The position numbers were made by a program, and so were the translations under genes. From the NCBI GenBank assembly GCA_003577365.1, contig QEUY01000001.1:1-25365 (forward strand): a DNA stretch of 25,365 nucleotides, written 5' to 3'. Positions 3,932 through 12,575 of this stretch are shown in pieces (position 1 is the stretch's first letter; each line of letters opens with the position of its first letter). Source of the DNA: Chloroflexota bacterium. Lineage in GTDB: Bacteria > Chloroflexota > Anaerolineae > Caldilineales > Caldilineaceae. Below the pieces are notes generated by a model. It was given only the letters and a program-made list of their open reading frames with translations. It was not told where the DNA came from and made no database searches.

Positions 3932-5116
3932 CTAGGCGCTTCCTTGGGAGCGGGCCAAGACGCTCTGCCCCAGGTGAACATAGAGTTGGTCGTCGTTCAT
4001 GGGGTGGTTGAGGCCGCCGCGCACATCGCGGTAATAGCGTTCCAGCGGCAGGCTGCGGCTCATGCCTGCGCCACCCACCACGCGCATACAGGCGTCGACG
4101 GCGGCCACGGCGTTGTTGGTGGCGGTATATTTGGCGACGAGGATCGATTCGGCCAGGGCGTCGCGGCAGTCGGGACGTTCATCCCACAGCGCCGCCGCCT
4201 GATAGAGCAGCACGCGCCCCTGGTGCAACAGCAGCTCGGCCTGGCCCAGCCGCCGCTGGATGCTCTCCAGTTCGGCGATCGGTTTGCCCAAAGCGGTGGG
4301 AACACGTTCATGGGCATAGGCGGCGGCGCTGCGCAGCGCCGCCGCCGCCACACCCAGATAGACGGCGCTGAGGGTGAGCGGGAACCAGGCATTGGTGCGC
4401 GGCTGGCCGCCTTTGCCGCCGGCGGGGATCAGGTTCTCGGCGGGTACAAAGACGTCGTGCAGCAGCACGTCATGGCTGCCGGTGGAGCGCATCCCCATGG
4501 CGTCCCAGGTCTCGACGATCTCGACGCCCGGCCCTACTTCGACCACAAAATTGCCGTTGGCGGCGCTGCCGTCCTCACGCGCCGCCAGGATCACCATATA
4601 GTCGAGCGCCGGGCTGAGGCTGGCGAAGTTCTTGCGCCCATTGATCAGCCAGCCCGCGGGGCGGTCACCCGTGGCGGGCACGGGTCGCGCCGTGGTTTTG
4701 GGCCTGCCGCCGCGGCTGGGGCTGCCCAGTTCCGGCTCGCTTGCCAGGGCGTTGATCAGCGCGCCGCGCTGCACCGCGGCCTCACAGACGCGGCGAAAGA
4801 GCGGCTGCGGCCAGTAGCGGCTCTCGGCGGCGCTGCCCAAGGTCTGCATATGCATGGTGACGCTGAGCGCGGTGCTGCCGTCGCCCACGGCCAGCGCCTC
4901 CACGGTGCGCAGTGTTTCTAGCAGGTTGGCGCCCCAGCCGCCCAATTCTGCGGGCACGATCAAGCTGGGCAGCCCGGCGGCGCGCACCTCGTCGATGTTT
5001 TCAAAAGGGAAGCTGCCGGCGCGATCATGCTCGGCGGCGCGGCGGCTGAAGCTGGCGGCCAGCCTGCGCGCAATGCCGATAAACCGCGCCTGCCGCTCGG
5101 TGATGGGGTAGATCAT
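3932..5116 (-). CDS. Acyl-CoA dehydrogenase-fold flavoprotein (YdbM/DszC-like, probable group D monooxygenase)
   Basis: AAEHDRAGSFPFE, INGRKNFASLS, WDAMGMRSTGSHDV, LERYYRDVR motifs. No IYEG catalytic-Glu motif; C-terminal LNHP instead. Confidence 0.85.
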   Translation of the reverse strand: MIYPITERQARFIGIARRLAASFSRRAAEHDRAGSFPFENIDEVRAAGLPSLIVPAELGGWGANLLETLRTVEALAVGDGSTALSVTMHMQTLGSAAESRYWPQPLFRRVCEAAVQRGALINALASEPELGSPSRGGRPKTTARPVPATGDRPAGWLINGRKNFASLSPALDYMVILAAREDGSAANGNFVVEVGPGVEIVETWDAMGMRSTGSHDVLLHDVFVPAENLIPAGGKGGQPRTNAWFPLTLSAVYLGVAAAALRSAAAYAHERVPTALGKPIAELESIQRRLGQAELLLHQGRVLLYQAAALWDERPDCRDALAESILVAKYTATNNAVAAVDACMRVVGGAGMSRSLPLERYYRDVRGGLNHPMNDDQLYVHLGQSVLARSQGSA

Positions 5117-5284
5117 GGGGTCAGTGTCTAGCCATTCACAAACTAGGACTTACGCAAAATCGACGTAAGATTTCGACACGAAATCGTGCACGCCACGAGT
5201 TGCACCGCAAACCGCACCTACACCATAGCCTGGCCGGGTTCGGACGCGGTTGTGGCTATGAGCCATCCCGGAGTTGGCTGCCGG

Positions 5285-5341
5285 TCCGCCCGCCCGGAGC
5301 TAACGCTGCCGGGCTAAAGAACGACGCCCCCAAGGGGGCTT
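5285..5341. repeat. REP-like two-hairpin repeat, copy 2
   Basis: TCCGCCCGCCCGGAGC...CCGGGCTAAAG..CGACGCCCCCAAGGGGGCTT is shared with 2225-2289. Confidence 0.8.
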
Positions 5342-5345
5342 TCTT

Positions 5346-5373
5346 GTAGATGCGGTTAGAAAACCGCATCTAC
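5346..5373. repeat. GTAG-type REP palindrome
   Basis: Perfect 12-bp stem GTAGATGCGGTT-agaa-AACCGCATCTAC. A lone right arm (AAACCGCACCTAC) lies at 5209-5221. Confidence 0.8.
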
Positions 5374-5377
5374 GCTT

Positions 5378-5429
5378 CTCTTTGCTCTGGCCTTTGCGTC
5401 CTTGGCGTCCTTTGCGGTGAATCCTCTGT
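5378..5429. repeat. Dispersed repeat with 9-nt internal period (CCTTTGCGT-like), copy 1
   Basis: 47/53 identical by manual alignment to 8467-8519. Confidence 0.8.
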
Positions 5430-5444
5430 GATCTTTCTGTGATC

Positions 5445-6449
5445 TTATCGGACTGCGGCCATCTCCTGCACGGTCTCGATCACGGCGCGGATATGCGCGT
5501 CGGGCGTGTTGGTCGGGATCACACAGCCCGGCCCGACCAAGATGCGCCGCCCGCCGGTCTGCTCGACGGCGTCGCGCGCCTGCCAGCGGATCTGGTCGAT
5601 CGGCCCTTCGGCAATCGTCACCTGGTCGTCGATGCCGCCGACCAGCAGCCCGTCGAAGCGGCTCTGTGCCTCCTTCAGGCTGGGCCAGGTCAAGCGGTCG
5701 TGCCAGTTGATCATCTCGACCGGATAGCTGGCGGCCAGGTCGAACATGATGTCGAAGCCGTGGACATGCAGCATATTGATCGTCTCGTCGCTGCGGATGG
5801 CGTTGAGCACTTTGATGTCATAGGTCGCGCCGAACTCGCTGTACTCCGCCTCGCTGAAGAGGCGATAGCTGGCCCCCTGCGTGGCGAAAAAGACGCCGTG
5901 CGCGCCCGCCTGCAAACAGGCCTGGGCAAAGCGGATCGTCACGTCCGCGATGATCTCCAGCCCCTGCTTGAGCAGGTCGGGGCGCAGCCGCATATCGCCG
6001 TGCACGCGGTCGCCCGCCAGCTTGATCGCCGTGGTCAGCGGGCTAAAGATGGTCTGCAGAATGGGCACGCTGCCCTTGAGTTCCTCGGCGGCCAGGCGGA
6101 TGGCCTCCACCTCCTGGCCGAGTGCGCCCTTGTGCGGGTCGAGCGTCGCCAGCTTGGGCCATTCTTCCGCCTGGGTCAGCCCCGGCTTGGTGGAGATGCG
6201 GTTGCCGCGGAAGCCGGGGTTATAGACCGTCTGCGTGCCCCAGTCATGCACGCCGTACATGCCGGTGGGCATAAATTTGACCAGGTCAAAGTCATATTGG
6301 CGCTGCCAGCGCACCATGGCGTTGGCAAGCCCTTGGGCGGTTTCATCCTCGACCGGCCAGTGCCGCCACAGGCTGACAGGCACGCGGTCGACCTCTTCGC
6401 CCTTGAGCGCGGCCCGCACGCGCTCCCAATGGTTCATGCTGGATGTCAC
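5445..6449 (-). CDS. Uroporphyrinogen decarboxylase / MtaA-CmuA superfamily protein (non-canonical, not HemE)
   Basis: ERVRAALKGEEVDRVPVSLW, QTIFSPLT, ACLQAGAHGVFFA, LHVHG, ILVGPGC. Lacks RQAGRY. GTG start with AAAGGAG 10 nt upstream; alternative ATG at 6437. Confidence 0.85.
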   Translation of the reverse strand: MTSSMNHWERVRAALKGEEVDRVPVSLWRHWPVEDETAQGLANAMVRWQRQYDFDLVKFMPTGMYGVHDWGTQTVYNPGFRGNRISTKPGLTQAEEWPKLATLDPHKGALGQEVEAIRLAAEELKGSVPILQTIFSPLTTAIKLAGDRVHGDMRLRPDLLKQGLEIIADVTIRFAQACLQAGAHGVFFATQGASYRLFSEAEYSEFGATYDIKVLNAIRSDETINMLHVHGFDIMFDLAASYPVEMINWHDRLTWPSLKEAQSRFDGLLVGGIDDQVTIAEGPIDQIRWQARDAVEQTGGRRILVGPGCVIPTNTPDAHIRAVIETVQEMAAVR

Positions 6450-6523
6450 GAGATTCCTGCTCCTTTCGGTTGCAGCGACCGGCGCTTATCAAGCGCCGGT
6501 CACTTCTTTGCTCATGGATAGAG

Positions 6524-7438
6524 CTAAATGGATTTCTGCCGCCGCGGGTCCAGCACATCGCGCAGACCGTCGCCCAGCAGATAGACCCCCAGCACCAGCA
6601 GCATGATCGCCAGGCCGGGGAAGATCGAATACCAGGGAGATTGGGACATATAGCCGCGCCCGATGCTCAACATCGACCCCCACGACGGCGCGGGCAGCGG
6701 CACGCCCAGCCCTAAAAAGCTCAACGACGATTCGAGCAGCACTGCGCCCGCAAACGAAACCGTCATCTGCACGATGATGGTCGCCAGGCTGTTGGGCAAG
6801 ATGGTGCGAAACAAGATGCGGCGGTGCGGCGCGCCGATGGCGCGCGCCGCGTCCACATAGTCTTTGTGCTTTTCGGCCAGCACATTGGCGCGCGCCAGCC
6901 GCGCAAAGATCGGGATGTTGACGATCGCCACGGCCAGCATGGCATTGCGCGCGCCCGGCCCCAACACCGCCAGGATCACAATCGCCAGCAGGATCGCCGG
7001 GAAGGCCAGCAGCGCGTCGAAGAAGCGCATGATCACCGCGTCGAACCAGCGCGACTCATAGCCGGCGACGGCCCCCAGCGTCACGCCGACCAGCGTGGCA
7101 AGCGCCACCGAGACGCCGCCCACGGCAAAGGCCACCCGCCCGCCAAAGAGCACCCGGCTCCAGATATCGCGGCCAAACTCGTCGGCCCCCATCGGATAGG
7201 CCGCCGAAGGCGCGGCAAAGCGGTCGGCGCTGTGCATCGCCACCGGGTCATAGGGGGCCAGCCAGGGCGCGGCCAGCGCCAGCGCAGCCATAGCCAGCAC
7301 CAAGATCAGCCCCGCCATTCCTGTGCGGTGGCGCACAAAGGCGCGCAGCGCGGCGCGGGTGAGGCTCTCTTGGGGTTGGCGCTCCACAGCCAGATCAGAT
7401 GTCTGGGTCTCGCGCAGGCTGAGATTGGCTGTTGACAT
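6524..7438 (-). CDS. Peptide/nickel-type ABC transporter permease (DppC/OppC-like)
   Basis: PMGADEFGRDIWSRVLFGGR, DYVDAARAIGA, ILPNSL, ESSLSFLGLGVPLPAPSWG. Confidence 0.95.
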   Translation of the reverse strand: MSTANLSLRETQTSDLAVERQPQESLTRAALRAFVRHRTGMAGLILVLAMAALALAAPWLAPYDPVAMHSADRFAAPSAAYPMGADEFGRDIWSRVLFGGRVAFAVGGVSVALATLVGVTLGAVAGYESRWFDAVIMRFFDALLAFPAILLAIVILAVLGPGARNAMLAVAIVNIPIFARLARANVLAEKHKDYVDAARAIGAPHRRILFRTILPNSLATIIVQMTVSFAGAVLLESSLSFLGLGVPLPAPSWGSMLSIGRGYMSQSPWYSIFPGLAIMLLVLGVYLLGDGLRDVLDPRRQKSI

Positions 7439-7445
7439 AGGATCG

Positions 7446-8396
7446 CTAGCCCTGATCCAAACGGATGCGCGGGTCCAACCAGCCGTAGGTCAGGTCGGTG
7501 AGCAGGTTGACCAGCAGAAAGGCCAAGACAATCAAGAGCACGTTGGCCTGCAAAAGCGCATAGTCGCGCCATTCGATGGCTTGGATCGTAAGCCGGCCCA
7601 CGCCGGGCCAGGCATAGATCGACTCGATGATGATCGCGCCGCTCAACAGGTCGCCCAGTTGCAGCCCAAAAACGGTGACGACCGGGATCAGCGAGTTGGG
7701 CAGCGCATGACGCCAGATCACCCGTTTTTCGGCCAAGCCTTTGGCGCGCGCTGTGCGCACATAGTCTTGGTTCAAGACCTCCAGCAGCGACGAACGCAGA
7801 TAGCGCACCAGGTTGGCCGCCACCCCAATGCCCAGCGTGAAGGCGGGCAGGATCACCGACTTGGCCCACAGCCCCGGCTGCTCTACCAACGAAGGCCGGC
7901 CCGAAGGCGGCAGCCAGCGCAGCTCTTGGCTGAAGAGCATGATCAAGAGGATCAACAGAAAGAAGCCGGGCATGGCAAACGACAGCGCCGAAAAGCCGGT
8001 GGTGATCACGTCGATCGTCGAACCGGGCCGCAGCGCCGCCAGAATCCCCAGGGGCAGGGCGATAAGCAGCGCGATCACCCCCGACACCAGCGCCAGTTCC
8101 ACAGTGGCCGGGACGCGCTGGGCAATCATCTTGCCCACCGGGTATTTGTTGATGTAGGAGACGCCCAGGTCGCCGCTGAGCACATTCTTGAGCCAGATGG
8201 CATACTGCGTCCACAGCGGCTGATCCAGCCCCATGCGCGCCTCGAGCGCGGCCAGTTGTTCGGGCGTGGCGTTTGGCCCGGCGACGATCTGGGCAGGGTT
8301 GCCCGGTATCAGATGGATGATCGAGAAGACGGCGACCGAGACGAGTAACATCACCGGCACCATCTGCCACAGCCGCTTCAGCGCATAGATGCCCAC
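7446..8396 (-). CDS. Peptide/nickel-type ABC transporter permease (DppB/OppB-like)
   Basis: LKRLWQMVPVMLLVS, LGLDQP-like MGLDQPL, DYVRTARAKGL, HALPNSLIP, YGWLDPRIR. GTG start with AAGGAG SD. Confidence 0.95.
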   Translation of the reverse strand: MGIYALKRLWQMVPVMLLVSVAVFSIIHLIPGNPAQIVAGPNATPEQLAALEARMGLDQPLWTQYAIWLKNVLSGDLGVSYINKYPVGKMIAQRVPATVELALVSGVIALLIALPLGILAALRPGSTIDVITTGFSALSFAMPGFFLLILLIMLFSQELRWLPPSGRPSLVEQPGLWAKSVILPAFTLGIGVAANLVRYLRSSLLEVLNQDYVRTARAKGLAEKRVIWRHALPNSLIPVVTVFGLQLGDLLSGAIIIESIYAWPGVGRLTIQAIEWRDYALLQANVLLIVLAFLLVNLLTDLTYGWLDPRIRLDQG

Positions 8397-8427
8397 AGGC
8401 TCAACTCCTTAAGAGGGGGAGTAGGGA

Positions 8428-8553
8428 GTAGGCAGATAGGCAGTGGGGGCAGAACTAGAAGGGTTACTCTCTGCTTTGGCCTTTGCGTTCTTTGCGGCCT
8501 TTGCGGTGAAATCCTCTGTCCCACTCCCTACTGCCCACTCCCTATCTGCCTAC
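8428..8553. repeat. Composite GTAG-ended inverted repeat (REPIN-like) enclosing copy 2 of the 9-nt-period repeat (8467-8519)
   Basis: Arm 8428-8447 GTAGGCAGATAGGCAGTGGG matches the reverse complement of 8534-8553 at 19/20. Arms are built from ~7-nt units (GGGAGTA/GGCAGTA-like). Confidence 0.8.
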
Positions 8554-10118
8554 CGATCCAGCCAGGTCTCGCCCAGCCAGAGCAGCCCGTCCATATCGAC
8601 GCGGAAGTCCTGAACCTCGCTCTTATAGGCATGGACGGTCTGATCCCACACGGTGGGGATGGTCCACGCCTGTTCCAGCAGGATTTCCAGCGCGCGGTGA
8701 TAGTGTTCCTTGCGCGCTGCCTGATCGTTTTCCTCGCGCGCTTGCAAGATCACCTGCTCATATTCCGGGAACCAGTCGTCCTGGTTTTCGGTGATGCCGA
8801 AGAAGTTGCGGAAGGGACGGCAGCAGGCCGCGCCTTCGAACAGACCGCTAGGGTCGACCGTGGCGTCGCCGGTGGCGTGCGAGACGATCGAGAAGTTGCT
8901 GTCGAAGAGCAGCGGCCAATATTGCGGCAGCTCGGTGGGTACTAGCTCCACCTGCACGCCGATGGCCGCCAACTGCTGTTGGAAGACCTGGGCCTGGTCC
9001 AGGTGGGGGCCGCCCGTGCCGCGGATCAACATCTGCACCGAGAAGCCATCCGGGTAGCCGGCCTCGGCCAGCAGCGCCTTGGCCTTTTCGGGGTCATAGG
9101 TGTAGTAGTCTTCCAGGTCCGGCGCATAGGCCCAAGAGGTCTTGGGATAGGGTACCAAGAGCGGCGTGGCTTGGCCGTGGAAGGCGGTCTCGGAGATCTC
9201 CTCGCGGTTGATCGCATATTGGAAGGCCTGGCGCACCTTGACGTTGTCAAAGGGCGGCGCGTTGACATTCATAATGAAGGCATAGAAGGTGAAGCCTGCC
9301 GGCGCCTCGCCGACGACCATGCCCTCTTCCTGGGCCAGCCCTGCCTTTTCACTCAGCGGAACGCCCACCAAGGCGTCGATGCTGCCGGACTTCAGATTCA
9401 CCAAGCGCGCCTGCTCGTCGGGGATCGGCTTGACGACGATCTTGTCGAGATAGGGCAGCCCCTCGCGCCAGTAGTCCTCAAAGCGCTCGGCGGTCATGCT
9501 GTCGCCGGGGATCCATTCGATGAATTTGAAGGGGCCGGTTCCCACAGGCACGGTGTCAATCGTCTCGGCGGCCTCCTGCGGGAAGATATAGAGGCGCGCG
9601 ATGCCGTCGAGCTGCGAAGCCGTGTGCTCGCTGTAGTTGATCTTGACCGTGTAGTCGTCGATCTTCTCAGCGCCGGTGCAGGTCTGGAAGCGGTCGCTCA
9701 GGTGATGGCCGATCTCCGTATTGCGCGCATAGTCGACCGACCAGACCACGTCGTCGGCGGTCAGCTCGCGCCCGTTGTGGAACTTGATCCCTTGGCGCAG
9801 ATGGAGCGTGACCGATAGCCCATCCTCGCCTTCTTCCCAAGATTCGGCCAGCCAGGGTTCAAAGTCGCCGGCGTCGCTGATACGGATCGGCGCTTCGAAA
9901 AAGACCGGCTTGATCTGGGCGTTGGTCACGTCATAATAAGGGTGGAAGGTGACGAAGTCGTCACCCAACGACAGCGTAAGCGTGCCTCCCGCCTTGGGGC
10001 CGGCAGGGGCGGCGGCTTCGCCTGCGGCAGGAGCGGCGGGCTGGGCCGCAGGGGCGCAGGCCGCCAACAGCAGCACAGCCAACAGCAACAGAGTCGTCAA
10101 CGTCGTGCGTTTTTGCAT
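8550..10118 (-). CDS. ABC transporter substrate-binding lipoprotein, family 5 (DppA/OppA/NikA-like)
   Basis: Lipobox LAAC; PWLAESWE, LRQGIKFHNGRELTADDVVWS, PVGTGPFKF, FDNVKVRQA. GAGGAG SD. Confidence 0.95.
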   Translation of the reverse strand: MQKRTTLTTLLLLAVLLLAACAPAAQPAAPAAGEAAAPAGPKAGGTLTLSLGDDFVTFHPYYDVTNAQIKPVFFEAPIRISDAGDFEPWLAESWEEGEDGLSVTLHLRQGIKFHNGRELTADDVVWSVDYARNTEIGHHLSDRFQTCTGAEKIDDYTVKINYSEHTASQLDGIARLYIFPQEAAETIDTVPVGTGPFKFIEWIPGDSMTAERFEDYWREGLPYLDKIVVKPIPDEQARLVNLKSGSIDALVGVPLSEKAGLAQEEGMVVGEAPAGFTFYAFIMNVNAPPFDNVKVRQAFQYAINREEISETAFHGQATPLLVPYPKTSWAYAPDLEDYYTYDPEKAKALLAEAGYPDGFSVQMLIRGTGGPHLDQAQVFQQQLAAIGVQVELVPTELPQYWPLLFDSNFSIVSHATGDATVDPSGLFEGAACCRPFRNFFGITENQDDWFPEYEQVILQAREENDQAARKEHYHRALEILLEQAWTIPTVWDQTVHAYKSEVQDFRVDMDGLLWLGETWLDR

Positions 10119-10140
10119 ACCATTCTCCTCATGGATAGTC

Positions 10141-10168
10141 TCTGCGTGACAGTTTCTGCGTGACAGTT
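10141..10168. repeat. Perfect 14-bp tandem duplication TCTGCGTGACAGTT x2
   Basis: Read directly. A partial third copy TGACAGTTC lies at 10369-10377. Confidence 0.85.
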
Positions 10169-10391
10169 CCTAAGCTCTATGTGAGTCCCTGCCGGATACC
10201 ATCGCTTACACTTGGGTCTGCGCAGGGCGACGCCCACCGCACGGATCTCATGACCGGGGGACAGGTTGCGGAACAGGCCGATCTCAAAACGCTGGACAAC
10301 CGGCGGGGGCCGGTCGATGCCCCGCCCGCACACGCGTTTTTACGATGGCTTGTTCCCACTGGTTCGGATGACAGTTCTGATGGCGCGCCCT

Positions 10392-10420
10392 ATTCTAACC
10401 AAAGACGCGCACTCCAACAA
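10392..10420 (-). promoter_or_regulatory. Possible proximal sigma70 promoter for the ABC operon
   Basis: TTGTTG-17 nt-TAGAAT on the minus strand. Confidence 0.4.
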
Positions 10421-10453
10421 ACGCTTACAACGGTGCGAGCAGGGCGCGGCGAC

Positions 10454-10691
10454 GGCCCATTCACTCAACCTGTTTGGCAGTGGTTTGGCTAGACCGGCTC
10501 GACAAAACCGGTTCAGCAAACCAGATACGGCCTCCGGCGCAGGATGCATCGCCGCGCAAAGCATGTTAGACTTCCATGCAGATGCCGGCGTAGCGATGCA
10601 GACCCGCACAGCCGGCAGCCCTGCGGCCCAGCATGGAGGGTCGGCGGCTGGGAGCCGATGACCGGCACACAGCAGGTTGAGTTAACGGGCC
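10454..10691 (-). ncRNA. Putative structured cis-regulatory RNA domain (unassigned family)
   Basis: Closing helix 10673-10691 with 10454-10472 (18 of 19 paired including one G-U on the minus strand). Nested helices at 10545-10552/10593-10600, 10561-10565/10575-10579 and 10481-10523. Confidence 0.5.
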
Positions 10692-10849
10692 TTCGTACAG
10701 GGGCAGGTACAGGGGCAGGTACAACAACCGGCGAGGTAATAAGCAGGGGCCAGGCAGAGGGCAGCACGGTGGGAGGTATGACGGGGCAGAGACACGGCGC
10801 GCGACAGAGCTTCGGGAGGCGCTGCCGGCGCAAGAGCTAGATGCTGCAT
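10682..10849 (-). CDS. 55-aa Cys-rich small ORF, candidate leader peptide
   Basis: GAGGA-6 nt-ATG. Translates to MQHLALAPAAPPEALSRAVSLPRHTSHRAALCLAPAYYLAGCCTCPCTCPCTKAR*. It is below the ORF-track size cutoff and its codon usage is atypical for the genome. Confidence 0.5.
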   Translation of the reverse strand: MQHLALAPAAPPEALSRAVSLPRHTSHRAALCLAPAYYLAGCCTCPCTCPCTKAR

Positions 10850-10956
10850 GGGGTTTCCTCGCTGGTTGGTACGATCACGATACGAGCAAAATCATGATAC
10901 GATCACAGACGAACATCCATACACGGATATCCGCCGGCGCAGCCGCCGGCTAGGGC

Positions 10957-10985
10957 AGTATACGAGCCGCCCCGCTTCCTGTCAA
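10957..10985 (-). promoter_or_regulatory. Near-consensus sigma70 promoter pointing toward the small ORF and ABC operon
   Basis: TTGACA (10980-10985), 17-nt spacer, TATACT (10957-10962). Predicted start site ~10950. Confidence 0.8.
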
Positions 10986-11039: not shown

Positions 11040-11516
11040 ATGGACAACCCAATTGACAGCCGGCACAGTGACCAACACAGTGACCAACACGGTGACCGGC
11101 GTGATGAGATGAAGATCCGGGTCCTGGTGGCAAAGCCAGGGCTAGACGGCCATGACCGCGGCGCCAAGGTGGTGGCGCGCGCCCTGCGCGATGCCGGGTT
11201 CGAGGTGATCTACACCGGCATCCGCCAGACGCCGCAGATGATCGCCGAGGCCGCCCTGCAAGAGGATGTCGACGTGGTGGGGCTGAGCATCCTCAGCGGC
11301 GCGCATCTGACGCTCTGCCCCAAGGTGGTCGATCTGCTGCGCGCCCAGGGCCAGGGGCAGGTCGTCGTGGTGGTCGGCGGGATCGTGCCCGACGAGGATA
11401 TCCCCGCGCTGCAGGCGGCGGGCATCCGCGCCGTCTTTGGACCGGGGACCTCCACCCAAGAGATCGCCAGTTACATCCGCCAGGCCGTGGCCCAGGCGCA
11501 TCCGATGGACAACTAA
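11040..11516 (+). CDS. Cobalamin-binding domain protein (methylmalonyl-CoA mutase-type C-terminal/small subunit)
   Basis: [50 protein letters not shown]. Alternative start at ATG 11109. Confidence 0.92.
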
Positions 11517-12575
11517 ATGGGCCGCCAGATGGACAGCCCAATGCAGATGCGCCGGCACGCCGCGTCGCCGGCGGCGTTGGCCGAAGGGGTGCTGGCGGGC
11601 GACCGGCTGCTGCTGGCGCGCGCCATTACCCAGGTGGAGAACGAACAGCCCGACGCCCACGCCCTGCTGGCGCAGCTCTACGCGCACAGCGGGCGCGGCC
11701 ACATCATCGGCATCACCGGCGCGCCCGGAACCGGCAAATCGACCCTGGTCACCGCCTTGGCGCAGACCTTCCGCAGCCGCGGCGAGACGGTGGCGATCGT
11801 CGCCATCGACCCCACCAGCCCCTTTACGGGCGGCGCGATCTTGGGCGACCGTGTGCGCATGCGTGGCCTCAGCGGCGACGCCGGGGTCTTTATCCGCAGC
11901 ATGGCGACGCGCGGCAGCCTGGGCGGGCTGAGCAAGACCACGGGCGACGTGGTCACGCTGCTGGATGCGGCAGGCTATCAGCGCATTCTGGTCGAGACCG
12001 TCGGCGTGGGCCAGGCCGAGGTCGAGATCGCCAGCATGGCGCACACCACGCTGGTGGTGGAAGCGCCCGGCCTGGGCGACGAGGTACAGGCGATCAAGGC
12101 GGGCATCCTGGAGATCGCCGATATCCTGGTCGTCAACAAGGCCGACCGGCCCGGCGTGGAAAAGACGGTGCAGGCGCTGGAGATGATGCTAGAGTTGGAG
12201 TATGGCAGCAGCCGTCTGGTGCGCCATGAGGGGCAGTTGATGCGCGTCGAATCGCCGAGCGCCCCCGGCCAGGCGCGGCCTGCCGACGACTGGCGCGTCA
12301 CGGTGCTCAGGACCATCGCTGCCGACGGCACGGGCGTCGCCGCGCTGGGCGAGCGCATCGTGGCGCACCGCGCTTGGCTGGAGACATCCGGCGAGTTGGC
12401 CGTGCGCGAGCAGTTGCGCGTGGCGCGCACGCTGGAAAACATCCTGCGCGCCGAGTTAAACCGGCGGCTGCTGGCGCGCTTCCCCGCGGGCAGCCTCGAC
12501 GGGCTGGTCGAAGCCGTACATACCCGGCACACCGACCCCTACAGCGCGGCCCAAAGCCTCTTGGCGGCATGGTAG
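11517..12575 (+). CDS. meaB: Methylmalonyl-CoA mutase-associated GTPase chaperone MeaB/ArgK
   Basis: GITGAPGTGKST, DPTSPFTGGAILGDRVRM, ETVGVGQAE, VVNKAD. The exact start is uncertain among ATGs at 11517-11547. Confidence 0.93.
   Translation: MGRQMDSPMQMRRHAASPAALAEGVLAGDRLLLARAITQVENEQPDAHALLAQLYAHSGRGHIIGITGAPGTGKSTLVTALAQTFRSRGETVAIVAIDPTSPFTGGAILGDRVRMRGLSGDAGVFIRSMATRGSLGGLSKTTGDVVTLLDAAGYQRILVETVGVGQAEVEIASMAHTTLVVEAPGLGDEVQAIKAGILEIADILVVNKADRPGVEKTVQALEMMLELEYGSSRLVRHEGQLMRVESPSAPGQARPADDWRVTVLRTIAADGTGVAALGERIVAHRAWLETSGELAVREQLRVARTLENILRAELNRRLLARFPAGSLDGLVEAVHTRHTDPYSAAQSLLAAW

Follow-up and report, generated by a model that had tools for sequence, protein, structure and literature searches.

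We analysed a stretch of 25,365 nucleotides (nt) from a Chloroflexota bacterium of the family Caldilineaceae (GCA_003577365.1, contig QEUY01000001.1, forward strand 1-25,365; hereafter, the window) and identified, ahead of an operon for an ABC importer, a Cys-rich open reading frame (ORF) of 55 codons that probably serves as a ribosome-mediated cysteine sensor, like the leaders of the mycobacterial Cys ribulon. This reading of the sequence is well supported because of the comparative evidence. We describe here the anatomy of the leader unit, its conservation in related genomes, its codon bias, two paralogous units elsewhere in the genome and the coverage of leader RNA in metatranscriptomes; the response to cysteine itself, and the step that would couple it to the operon, we infer. 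The elements follow one another on the minus strand in the order promoter, 5' untranslated region (UTR) of ca. 100 nt, 55-codon ORF, 563-nt spacer, gene for a solute-binding protein (SBP), two permease genes, gene for a protein of the URO-D superfamily, a gap, and gene for a flavoprotein of the acyl-CoA dehydrogenase (ACAD) fold. A first-pass annotation of this DNA had listed the same elements, and each was found where it had placed it, all on the minus strand. Below, G numbers denote genomes (G000 being the source of the leader labelled win), L numbers denote loci and C numbers denote contigs of G000; window coordinates refer to the minus strand unless stated otherwise.

Anatomy of the leader unit

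The leader is preceded by promoter P1 (TTGACA-17-TATACT; 10957-10985), which matches the consensus at 11 of 12 positions and is a very strong, probably constitutive promoter. Exact TTGACA-N17-TATACT occurs at 26 sites in the 5.4-Mb assembly (66% GC, 89.5% complete), and three of these 26 precede ORFs with a Cys run. The ca. 100-nt 5' UTR (10850-10950) contains tandem repeats at 10867-10906, which are confined to G000 and G004, and a Shine-Dalgarno (SD) sequence, GAGGA (10860-10856), 6 nt before the ATG. The ORF that this SD and ATG serve (10682-10849) begins MQHL, ends in GCCTCPCTCPCTKAR and is closed by TAA. It encodes seven Cys residues, six of which fall within the last 15 codons. Here lies the Cys run that we propose as the sensor (TGT TGT ACC TGC CCC TGT ACC TGC CCC TGT; 10697-10726), in which the consecutive Cys codons TGT TGT are codons 42 and 43 of the ORF and part of which is a 12-bp tandem repeat (10695-10718). 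The ORF had no match in Pfam or NCBIfam.

Cys-richness alone is not significant in this genome, in which 575 stop-to-stop frames hold at least 5 Cys in 12 residues. Off-frame Cys-rich frames are thus common against such a GC-rich background and, together with the 12-bp repeat inside the Cys run, they would fit the view that the ORF is a functionless frame running by chance across a GC-rich tandem repeat. We regard this as very improbable. The frame, its start codon, its SD, its promoter and its Cys run are kept in three genera despite different nucleotide sequences, and only three loci in the whole genome combine a promoter, an SD, a start codon and a C-terminal Cys run. It is because of this combination of features, and not of its Cys-richness alone, that the leader ORF stands out.

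Two further Cys-rich frames of the genome were considered and rejected. That on contig C51 proved to be a signal peptide read off-frame. The other (..CDCAAYCCACCCLCSNTLS) lies at about 1681-1800 of contig C10 (plus strand), 27 nt before a gene for a sugar-phosphate isomerase-like protein; its ATG falls inside a promoter-like site, TTGTCA-N-TATACT, so that the start codon may be off the transcript. No leader-like ORFs for other amino acids were found behind the 87 consensus-like promoters of the genome. As a separate observation on such promoters, the palindrome GAAC-N4-GTTC (AGAACAAATGTTCG) lies within the spacer of three consensus or near-consensus promoters, on contigs C789, C826 and C863 of G000, two of them exact TTGACA-17-TATACT and one with an 18-nt spacer; these sites look like LexA (SOS) boxes.

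Conservation of the leader in orthologous loci

Orthologs of the SBP were found in 17 other genomes of the family, at 55 to 96% identity. A leader unit made up of promoter, SD, ATG and short ORF lies upstream of the SBP gene in 8 of the 18 orthologous loci, representing three genera: G000, G004, G001, G005, G003 and G007 belong to the same genus, and G156 and G165 to two others. P1 is retained in all eight as TTGACA-17/18-TATACT (TATATT in G156), and every one of the short ORFs has GAGG or AGGA 6 to 9 nt before its ATG. The ORFs vary in length (32 to 62 codons), and their last codons are Cys-rich, with 2 to 10 C-terminal Cys in each. The encoded peptides are 84% identical to the G000 copy in G004 and 21 to 43% identical to it in the others, the conserved columns being the start Met, one Pro and the Cys residues; the SBP, by comparison, has 66 to 96% identity among these orthologs. 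Cys runs are therefore retained in upstream ORFs amid divergence of the peptide, which is the pattern that the first-pass annotation had expected of a Cys-sensing leader. The ten other ortholog loci scanned had neither the promoter nor a short ORF, and one further locus, L070, has no upstream sequence on its contig. Since the loci that lack the ORF also lack the promoter, the two travel together.

The leader goes with the transporter and not with the whole set of five genes. In G156 it is followed by the SBP and permease genes only, to which G165 adds the UroD gene, and the UroD and flavoprotein genes are each absent from some of the leader-bearing loci; G155 has all five genes and no leader.

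Codon use in the Cys runs

We compared 17 leader ORFs, drawn from the SBP loci and from the paralogous units described below. Each has 3 to 8 Cys codons among its last 15 codons and 0 to 5 in the remainder, and in all versions the Cys run lies 1 to 5 codons from the stop. The Cys codons are 88 TGT and 33 TGC (73% UGU, versus 27% UGU in the genes of the genome), while the other two-fold codons ending in a pyrimidine are, within these ORFs, 42% T-ending. Adjacent pairs of Cys codons are TGT-TGT in 28 cases and TGC-TGC in one. The GC content at third codon positions (GC3) is 0.51 to 0.69 in the leader ORFs, from which the GC3 bias of the genome is absent. A rare, wobble-read codon such as UGU fits what would be expected of a sensor that works by stalling the ribosome.

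Paralogous units and a possible regulon

A scan of the G000 genome revealed two more units of the same architecture, one before a gene for a two-domain rhodanese and one before an OsmC-like gene, and all three units have an exact TTGACA-17-TATACT promoter. The rhodanese, which is of the thiosulfate sulfurtransferase type (L030:4481-3633, minus strand), is preceded at ca. 330 nt by a leader ORF reading MMYLSPRG...CCCSSCCPCLCS (contig C1026, L031:2680-2835, minus strand). The OsmC leader ORF, MAVSIG...CSCCTCPCCPCSCCTR (contig C830, L029:125-280, plus strand), lies 227 nt before the OsmC-like gene (L029:507-1025); no leader ORF precedes the orthologs of this gene in G017 and G018. Because the paralogous leaders precede a rhodanese and an OsmC-like gene, they tie the device to sulfur and thiol metabolism, and the best explanation for the at least three units of G000 (importer operon, rhodanese and OsmC-like gene) is that they form a small cysteine/sulfur regulon coordinated by the ribosome.

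The rhodanese leader ORF could be followed through 10 leaders, from seven genomes of the genus and from three further genera (four genera in all), which mostly end in CCxCLCS-stop. A long conserved hairpin with a CU-rich loop begins 0 to 1 nt after the stop codon, and among the three units the rhodanese leader alone has a conserved hairpin in this position; 83% of its cells are paired, a share that falls to 44% or less on sliding the partner, and three pairs have changed on both sides. A covariance model of this tail and hairpin matched once in each of 8 of the 9 congeneric genomes and had no match in the further genera of the family that the search covered (151 genomes in all). The same model had no match in the SBP leader and scored only 8.8 bits in the OsmC leader, and for this reason the expression platforms of the three units are not detectably shared.

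Across all 19 leader ORFs of the SBP and paralogous loci, Cys is the sole residue retained, while Pro and Thr vary. This bears on the view that the leader ORF senses translation in cis but reports something other than cysteine supply, such as general ribosome stress, an effect of thiol or oxidative stress on tRNA-Cys or on CysRS, or slow formation of the Pro-Cys bond. The alternation of Cys codons with Pro and Thr codons in the run (CPC, CCP, PCC) would suit such a sensor, as would the control of an OsmC-like gene, from a family of thiol peroxidases, and the fact that the importer operon has no proven sulfur role. The retention of Cys alone argues otherwise, however, and so do the rhodanese target, which matches the mycobacterial cysteine regulon, and the UGU bias, which points to decoding by tRNA-Cys. 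We therefore consider a signal other than cysteine supply to be improbable.

Leader RNA and a candidate internal promoter

Between 45 and 70% of the words sampled from the leader stretch occur in six RNA libraries of sludge and bioreactor communities. Contigs were compared for four runs; in three of these they start 20 to 70 nt below the -10 box of P1 (at 10919, 10937 and 10885) and tile the leader as far as the SBP gene, which they enter. Coverage is absent from 10964 to about 11200 in three runs, and RNA is therefore a more likely source of these reads than contaminating DNA; in the fourth run, one contig spans the promoter. The strain variants seen in RNA alter leader residues 24, 26 and 30, and none alters the Cys run. 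The contigs are compatible with a transcript from the promoter toward the SBP gene, as the first-pass annotation had presupposed.

Within the spacer we noted a candidate internal promoter, P2 (TTGTTG-17-TAGAAT; 10392-10420), with a predicted start at about 10385 and a -10-like block 279 nt before the SBP ATG. The block TA[GA]AAT plus [AG]GGG is retained in win, L023 and L025 and also in L009, a locus that has no short ORF; L021 carries TAGAATAGAG, and the block is absent from leaders L022 and L024. In run X15, a single RNA contig covers 9500-10385 and so ends exactly at the predicted start, with a depth of 9.6 versus 2.5 to 5.5 upstream. The conservation of the block and the end of this contig are a hint that the operon may have a second promoter.

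Another reading is that the short ORF lies before the operon only incidentally, the operon being driven by its own internal promoter, and is an independent gene that encodes a small Cys-rich peptide, such as a metal- or redox-binding one or the precursor of a ribosomally synthesized and post-translationally modified peptide (RiPP) with a Cys/Thr/Pro core. Many RiPP precursors have a variable N-terminal part followed by a C-terminal core rich in Cys, Thr, Ser and Pro. The layout of the ORF resembles theirs, and its strong promoter, its good SD, the spacer of 221 to 592 nt to the SBP gene and P2, with the RNA contig that ends at its predicted start, would all suit an independent gene. Set against this, no YcaO gene was found in the 89.5%-complete genome, and the three units lie among unrelated neighbours that share no maturase or exporter, with no maturase-like gene adjoining any unit. 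Nor is there a conserved leader-recognition motif, Cys alone being retained, in numbers that range from 2 to 10. The codon use is atypical and biased to rare codons; in every case the ORF and the next gene share a strand, with the ORF directly upstream and nothing between; and the P2 block is missing from L022 and L024. A stand-alone peptide gene is thus an unlikely account of the locus.

The spacer and the possible coupling of the leader to the operon

If the leader ORF is a cysteine sensor, it would sense cysteine supply through charged tRNA-Cys, on the long leader RNA made from P1. When cysteine is plentiful, ribosomes would pass the run of UGU and UGC codons and be released at the stop codon, and the importer genes, which begin 563 nt downstream, would be poorly expressed. 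When cysteine is short, ribosomes would stall within the Cys run and cover the RNA around the stop codon, by which the block would be relieved.

The spacer between the stop codon of the short ORF and the SBP ATG (10119-10681) holds no convincing ORF. The leader as a whole folds better than shuffled sequences (z = -3.2), and it was unmatched in both gathering and permissive searches of Rfam. An inverted repeat, I1 (23 nt, 87% complementary), forms a long helix whose 5' arm (10673-10695) holds the stop codon and whose 3' arm (10450-10472) lies 200 nt downstream. Its score of 16.5, versus 8.4 +/- 1.1 in shuffles, is far beyond chance in G000, and the helix is notable in G004. The idea that the stop codon is sequestered in a helix is thus right for this locus, but the helix is limited to G000 and its nearest relative, G004. 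The same two genomes alone have a weak terminator-like hairpin (10498-10524; seven pairs, three of them G-C) followed by UUUUG, which is the sole terminator-like site of this leader.

Amid otherwise unalignable spacer sequence, a 31-nt block, AGTCTAnCAyGCTT-N8-GATGCAyC (10542-10572), is conserved in five congeneric leaders. It occurs once in the G000 genome, and when its pattern was sought in metagenome and genome collections, nothing turned up beyond the known loci except chance matches of low GC content. By our reading, neither an ORF nor pairing is conserved in the block, and we rejected it both as a mini-ORF and as a paired element. Farther downstream, tandem direct repeats of 10 to 14 nt immediately precede the SDs of SBP and rhodanese genes (in the window at 10134-10161, and in L021, L024, L025, L026, L031, L037 and L038), with a sequence that differs from genome to genome.

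A number of observations weigh against the reading of the ORF as a cysteine sensor. The spacer is long and variable, measuring 191 to 592 nt in the orthologs and being mostly unalignable. The stop-codon helix is lineage-specific, none comparable having been found in the other four congeners. No conserved terminator/antiterminator pair was found among the leaders, and the best duplex between the Cys tract and the downstream leader was no better than those of shuffled sequences and did not lie at the SD. The compared leaders are relatives that amount to about three independent leader families, so that the statistics overstate their independence, and since the leader sequences are related, the P values for the codon bias overstate the case. 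Contig depth in the RNA data shows no clear drop past the short ORF, although depth is too crude a measure to show attenuation. P2 may be a second promoter of the operon and could drive it on its own. There is no leader ORF before cysK. Lastly, the Cys plus Met content of the operon proteins is ordinary and not sulfur-poor, with the SBP at the 16th percentile.

For the coupling step we tentatively prefer, given the sensor, a model akin to that of the tna operon. In tnaC, a ribosome next to the stop codon blocks Rho. Here, the stalled ribosome would mask a C-rich, G-poor stretch by the stop codon and would hinder the loading of Rho and thus its termination of transcription in the long untranslated leader. 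We favour this Rho model because the ORF and the stretch after its stop are C-rich and G-poor (the leader ORFs are 36% C and 23% G, and in 15 of 17 leaders the 40 nt that follow the stop hold more C than G), because the untranslated spacer is long, and because rho is encoded in the genome. An alternative coupling would be a refolding of the leader that depends on the ribosome; when the Cys tract was masked as if by a ribosome, the SD opened in some of the leaders but not in the G000 leader.

Comparison with known cysteine leaders

The first-pass annotation had put this arrangement forward as a new system. Leaders with Cys runs have precedents, however, in Actinobacteria (PMC1262725), mycobacteria (10.1101/834739) and Rhodobacterales (PMC8632094), although we found no description of such leaders in Chloroflexota in the literature searched. 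Seliverstov et al. (2005, PMC1262725) predicted leader peptides with Cys runs before the cys and cbs operons of Actinobacteria and proposed a Rho-dependent, tna-like attenuation. Those leaders share with ours a Cys run near the stop codon and the lack of a conserved terminator hairpin; they precede genes for cysteine biosynthesis, whereas those described here precede an importer operon, a rhodanese gene and an OsmC-like gene.

In mycobacteria, Canestrari et al. (bioRxiv 10.1101/834739; Mol Microbiol 2020) showed experimentally that leaderless polycysteine small ORFs act as translational attenuators. Their Cys ribulon comprises several units, among them one that precedes a thiosulfate sulfurtransferase operon, and in it the Cys tract base-pairs with the SD that follows (10.1101/834739). 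The likeness to the Caldilineaceae units is considerable. In both, the first cistron is an unannotated short ORF whose 3' end carries Cys codons, the Cys tract persists amid divergence of the remaining peptide, and several independent units per genome precede cysteine or sulfur genes, with a thiosulfate sulfurtransferase as a common target. The two also differ in a number of respects. While the mycobacterial ORFs are leaderless, those of the Caldilineaceae have a 5' UTR of 40 to 120 nt and an SD; they are longer (32 to 62 codons), and their Cys codons, mostly UGU, are interspersed with Thr, Pro and Ser. The spacer is 191 to 592 nt, versus 97 nt in mycobacteria, the Cys tract shows no detectable pairing with the SD, and the phylum and the target genes are different.

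The uORFC-8-2 motif found before cysS in Rhodobacterales, a two-Cys upstream ORF with an intrinsic terminator, is likewise predicted to act by attenuation (PMC8632094). Like the ORFs described here, it is a leader ORF with tandem Cys codons that has been read as a ribosome-mediated attenuator. Its two Cys codons, however, are mostly UGC and lie inside a stem, downstream of which comes an intrinsic terminator that includes a U run, whereas the Caldilineaceae leaders have 2 to 10 Cys codons, mostly UGU, and no conserved terminator.

Among the classical attenuators, trpL, hisL and leuL combine a strong promoter, codons for the sensed amino acid near the leader stop and a structure abutting that stop, and the leu leader uses rare CUA codons. 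The present leader resembles these and tnaC in its strong promoter, in the position of its Cys codons near the stop, in its use of rare codons and in the structure that abuts the stop. It differs in that competing hairpins are undefined, the first gene is several-fold farther away, and the amino acid that would be sensed is cysteine.

Proteins of the operon and neighbouring features

The first protein of the operon is a family-5 solute-binding lipoprotein (8550-10118; SBP_bac_5, 1.4e-98) with a signal peptide and the lipobox LLAAC. Its best NCBIfam models are GsiB (189 bits), Opp4A, DppA and NikA, all far below their cut-offs. It is followed by two ABC permeases, one of the DppB/NikB/GsiC type (7446-8396) and one of the DppC/NikC/GsiD type (6524-7438); no ABC ATPase gene was found among the window ORFs scanned.

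The URO-D superfamily protein (5445-6449) is MtaA/CmuA-like. It scores 98.8 and 89 bits with MtaA/CmuA models versus 24.7 bits with HemE, in each case below the cut-off (for MtaA/CmuA, 89.4 versus 235.4), and its best solved relative is MtaA (4ay7, 7e-17). The Zn-ligand motif HxC of MtaA aligns with HVH in this protein, the C-terminal GPGC is kept, and H228 and C309 are invariant in six orthologs. The protein is thus like the MtaA-type Zn methyltransferases in keeping one Zn-ligand Cys, and unlike them in having HVH for HxC and in that the operon has no gene for a corrinoid protein.

The last gene of the set encodes the ACAD-fold flavoprotein (3932-5116), which is probably a group D flavin monooxygenase and for which a good structural model (pLDDT 82) was obtained. 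The closest structure to the model is 5z8t, entered as 'Flavin-containing monooxygenase' (Z 46.7, 46% identity), followed by KijD3, DszC, DnmZ and TdsC; true acyl-CoA dehydrogenases superpose nearly as well (Z 37 to 38). The protein shares its fold with the group D enzymes (5z8t, DszC/TdsC, KijD3, MsuC), while its family scores are far below the cut-offs (117.8 bits versus 430.9 for SfnB, and 86.5 versus 850 for DszC). The catalytic Glu of the dehydrogenases had been reported as missing. The Pfam match does stop at residue 366, and beyond it lies an invariant segment, GG.HP.NDD, which by our own reading, made from a less than rigorous alignment, occupies the position of that Glu; the replacement of the catalytic base would follow from this reading only. 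The homologues of the flavoprotein carry generic names in their sources, and a literature search found no papers on structures 5z8t and 5gj7. A possible lead for the flavoprotein is YdbM, which is listed among the sulfur-starvation and CymR genes of S. aureus (PMC13689551, PMC5480029).

None of the family models assigns a substrate to the proteins of the operon. Because these proteins are not sulfur-poor and the functions of the enzymes are unassigned by their families, a sulfur-related cargo is suggested only by the leader. The import and dismantling of a sulfur-containing compound, as first proposed for this operon, may be what it does, and a thiol or thioether cargo is only a reasonable guess.

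The 328-nt gap between the URO-D and flavoprotein genes (5117-5444) measures 15 to 119 nt in orthologs. It had been described as filled with REP-like repeats, and it does contain two families of short dispersed repeats, together with two stable hairpins, of which the second precedes a U-rich run. The two repeat families are intergenic and REP-like and occur on more than 50 other contigs of the assembly; in the window they are found in this gap, between the SBP and permease genes (8467-8519) and at 2239-2285. Past the flavoprotein gene, the next gene is ComEA. On the other side, divergent from the leader, lie a gene for a methylmalonyl-CoA mutase B12-binding domain and MeaB (11109-12575, plus strand), and their synteny with the SBP operon is retained in most genomes of the genus.

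Implications

Cysteine sensing by leader ORFs has so far been shown experimentally in mycobacteria only. The units described here would place the same principle in a second, unrelated phylum with different parts: ORFs led by an SD, the rare codon UGU, spacers of great length and an absence of recognisable terminators. Such a second case suggests that cysteine regulons based on the ribosome are widespread and arise easily. The UGU bias also bears on the question of which codon design sets the sensitivity of such a sensor.

One speculative and, in our estimation, doubtful extension is that the Caldilineaceae have a cysteine regulon of SD-led, UGU-biased leaders which act via Rho, and not via hairpin terminators or SD pairing, and that this regulon includes the importer, the UroD-like protein as a Zn enzyme and the flavin monooxygenase as an undescribed route from an organosulfur compound to cysteine sulfur. 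In any case, the leader marks the set of transporter, UroD-like protein and flavoprotein, along with the rhodanese and the OsmC-like protein, as probable members of a response to cysteine limitation in bacteria that are abundant in activated sludge.

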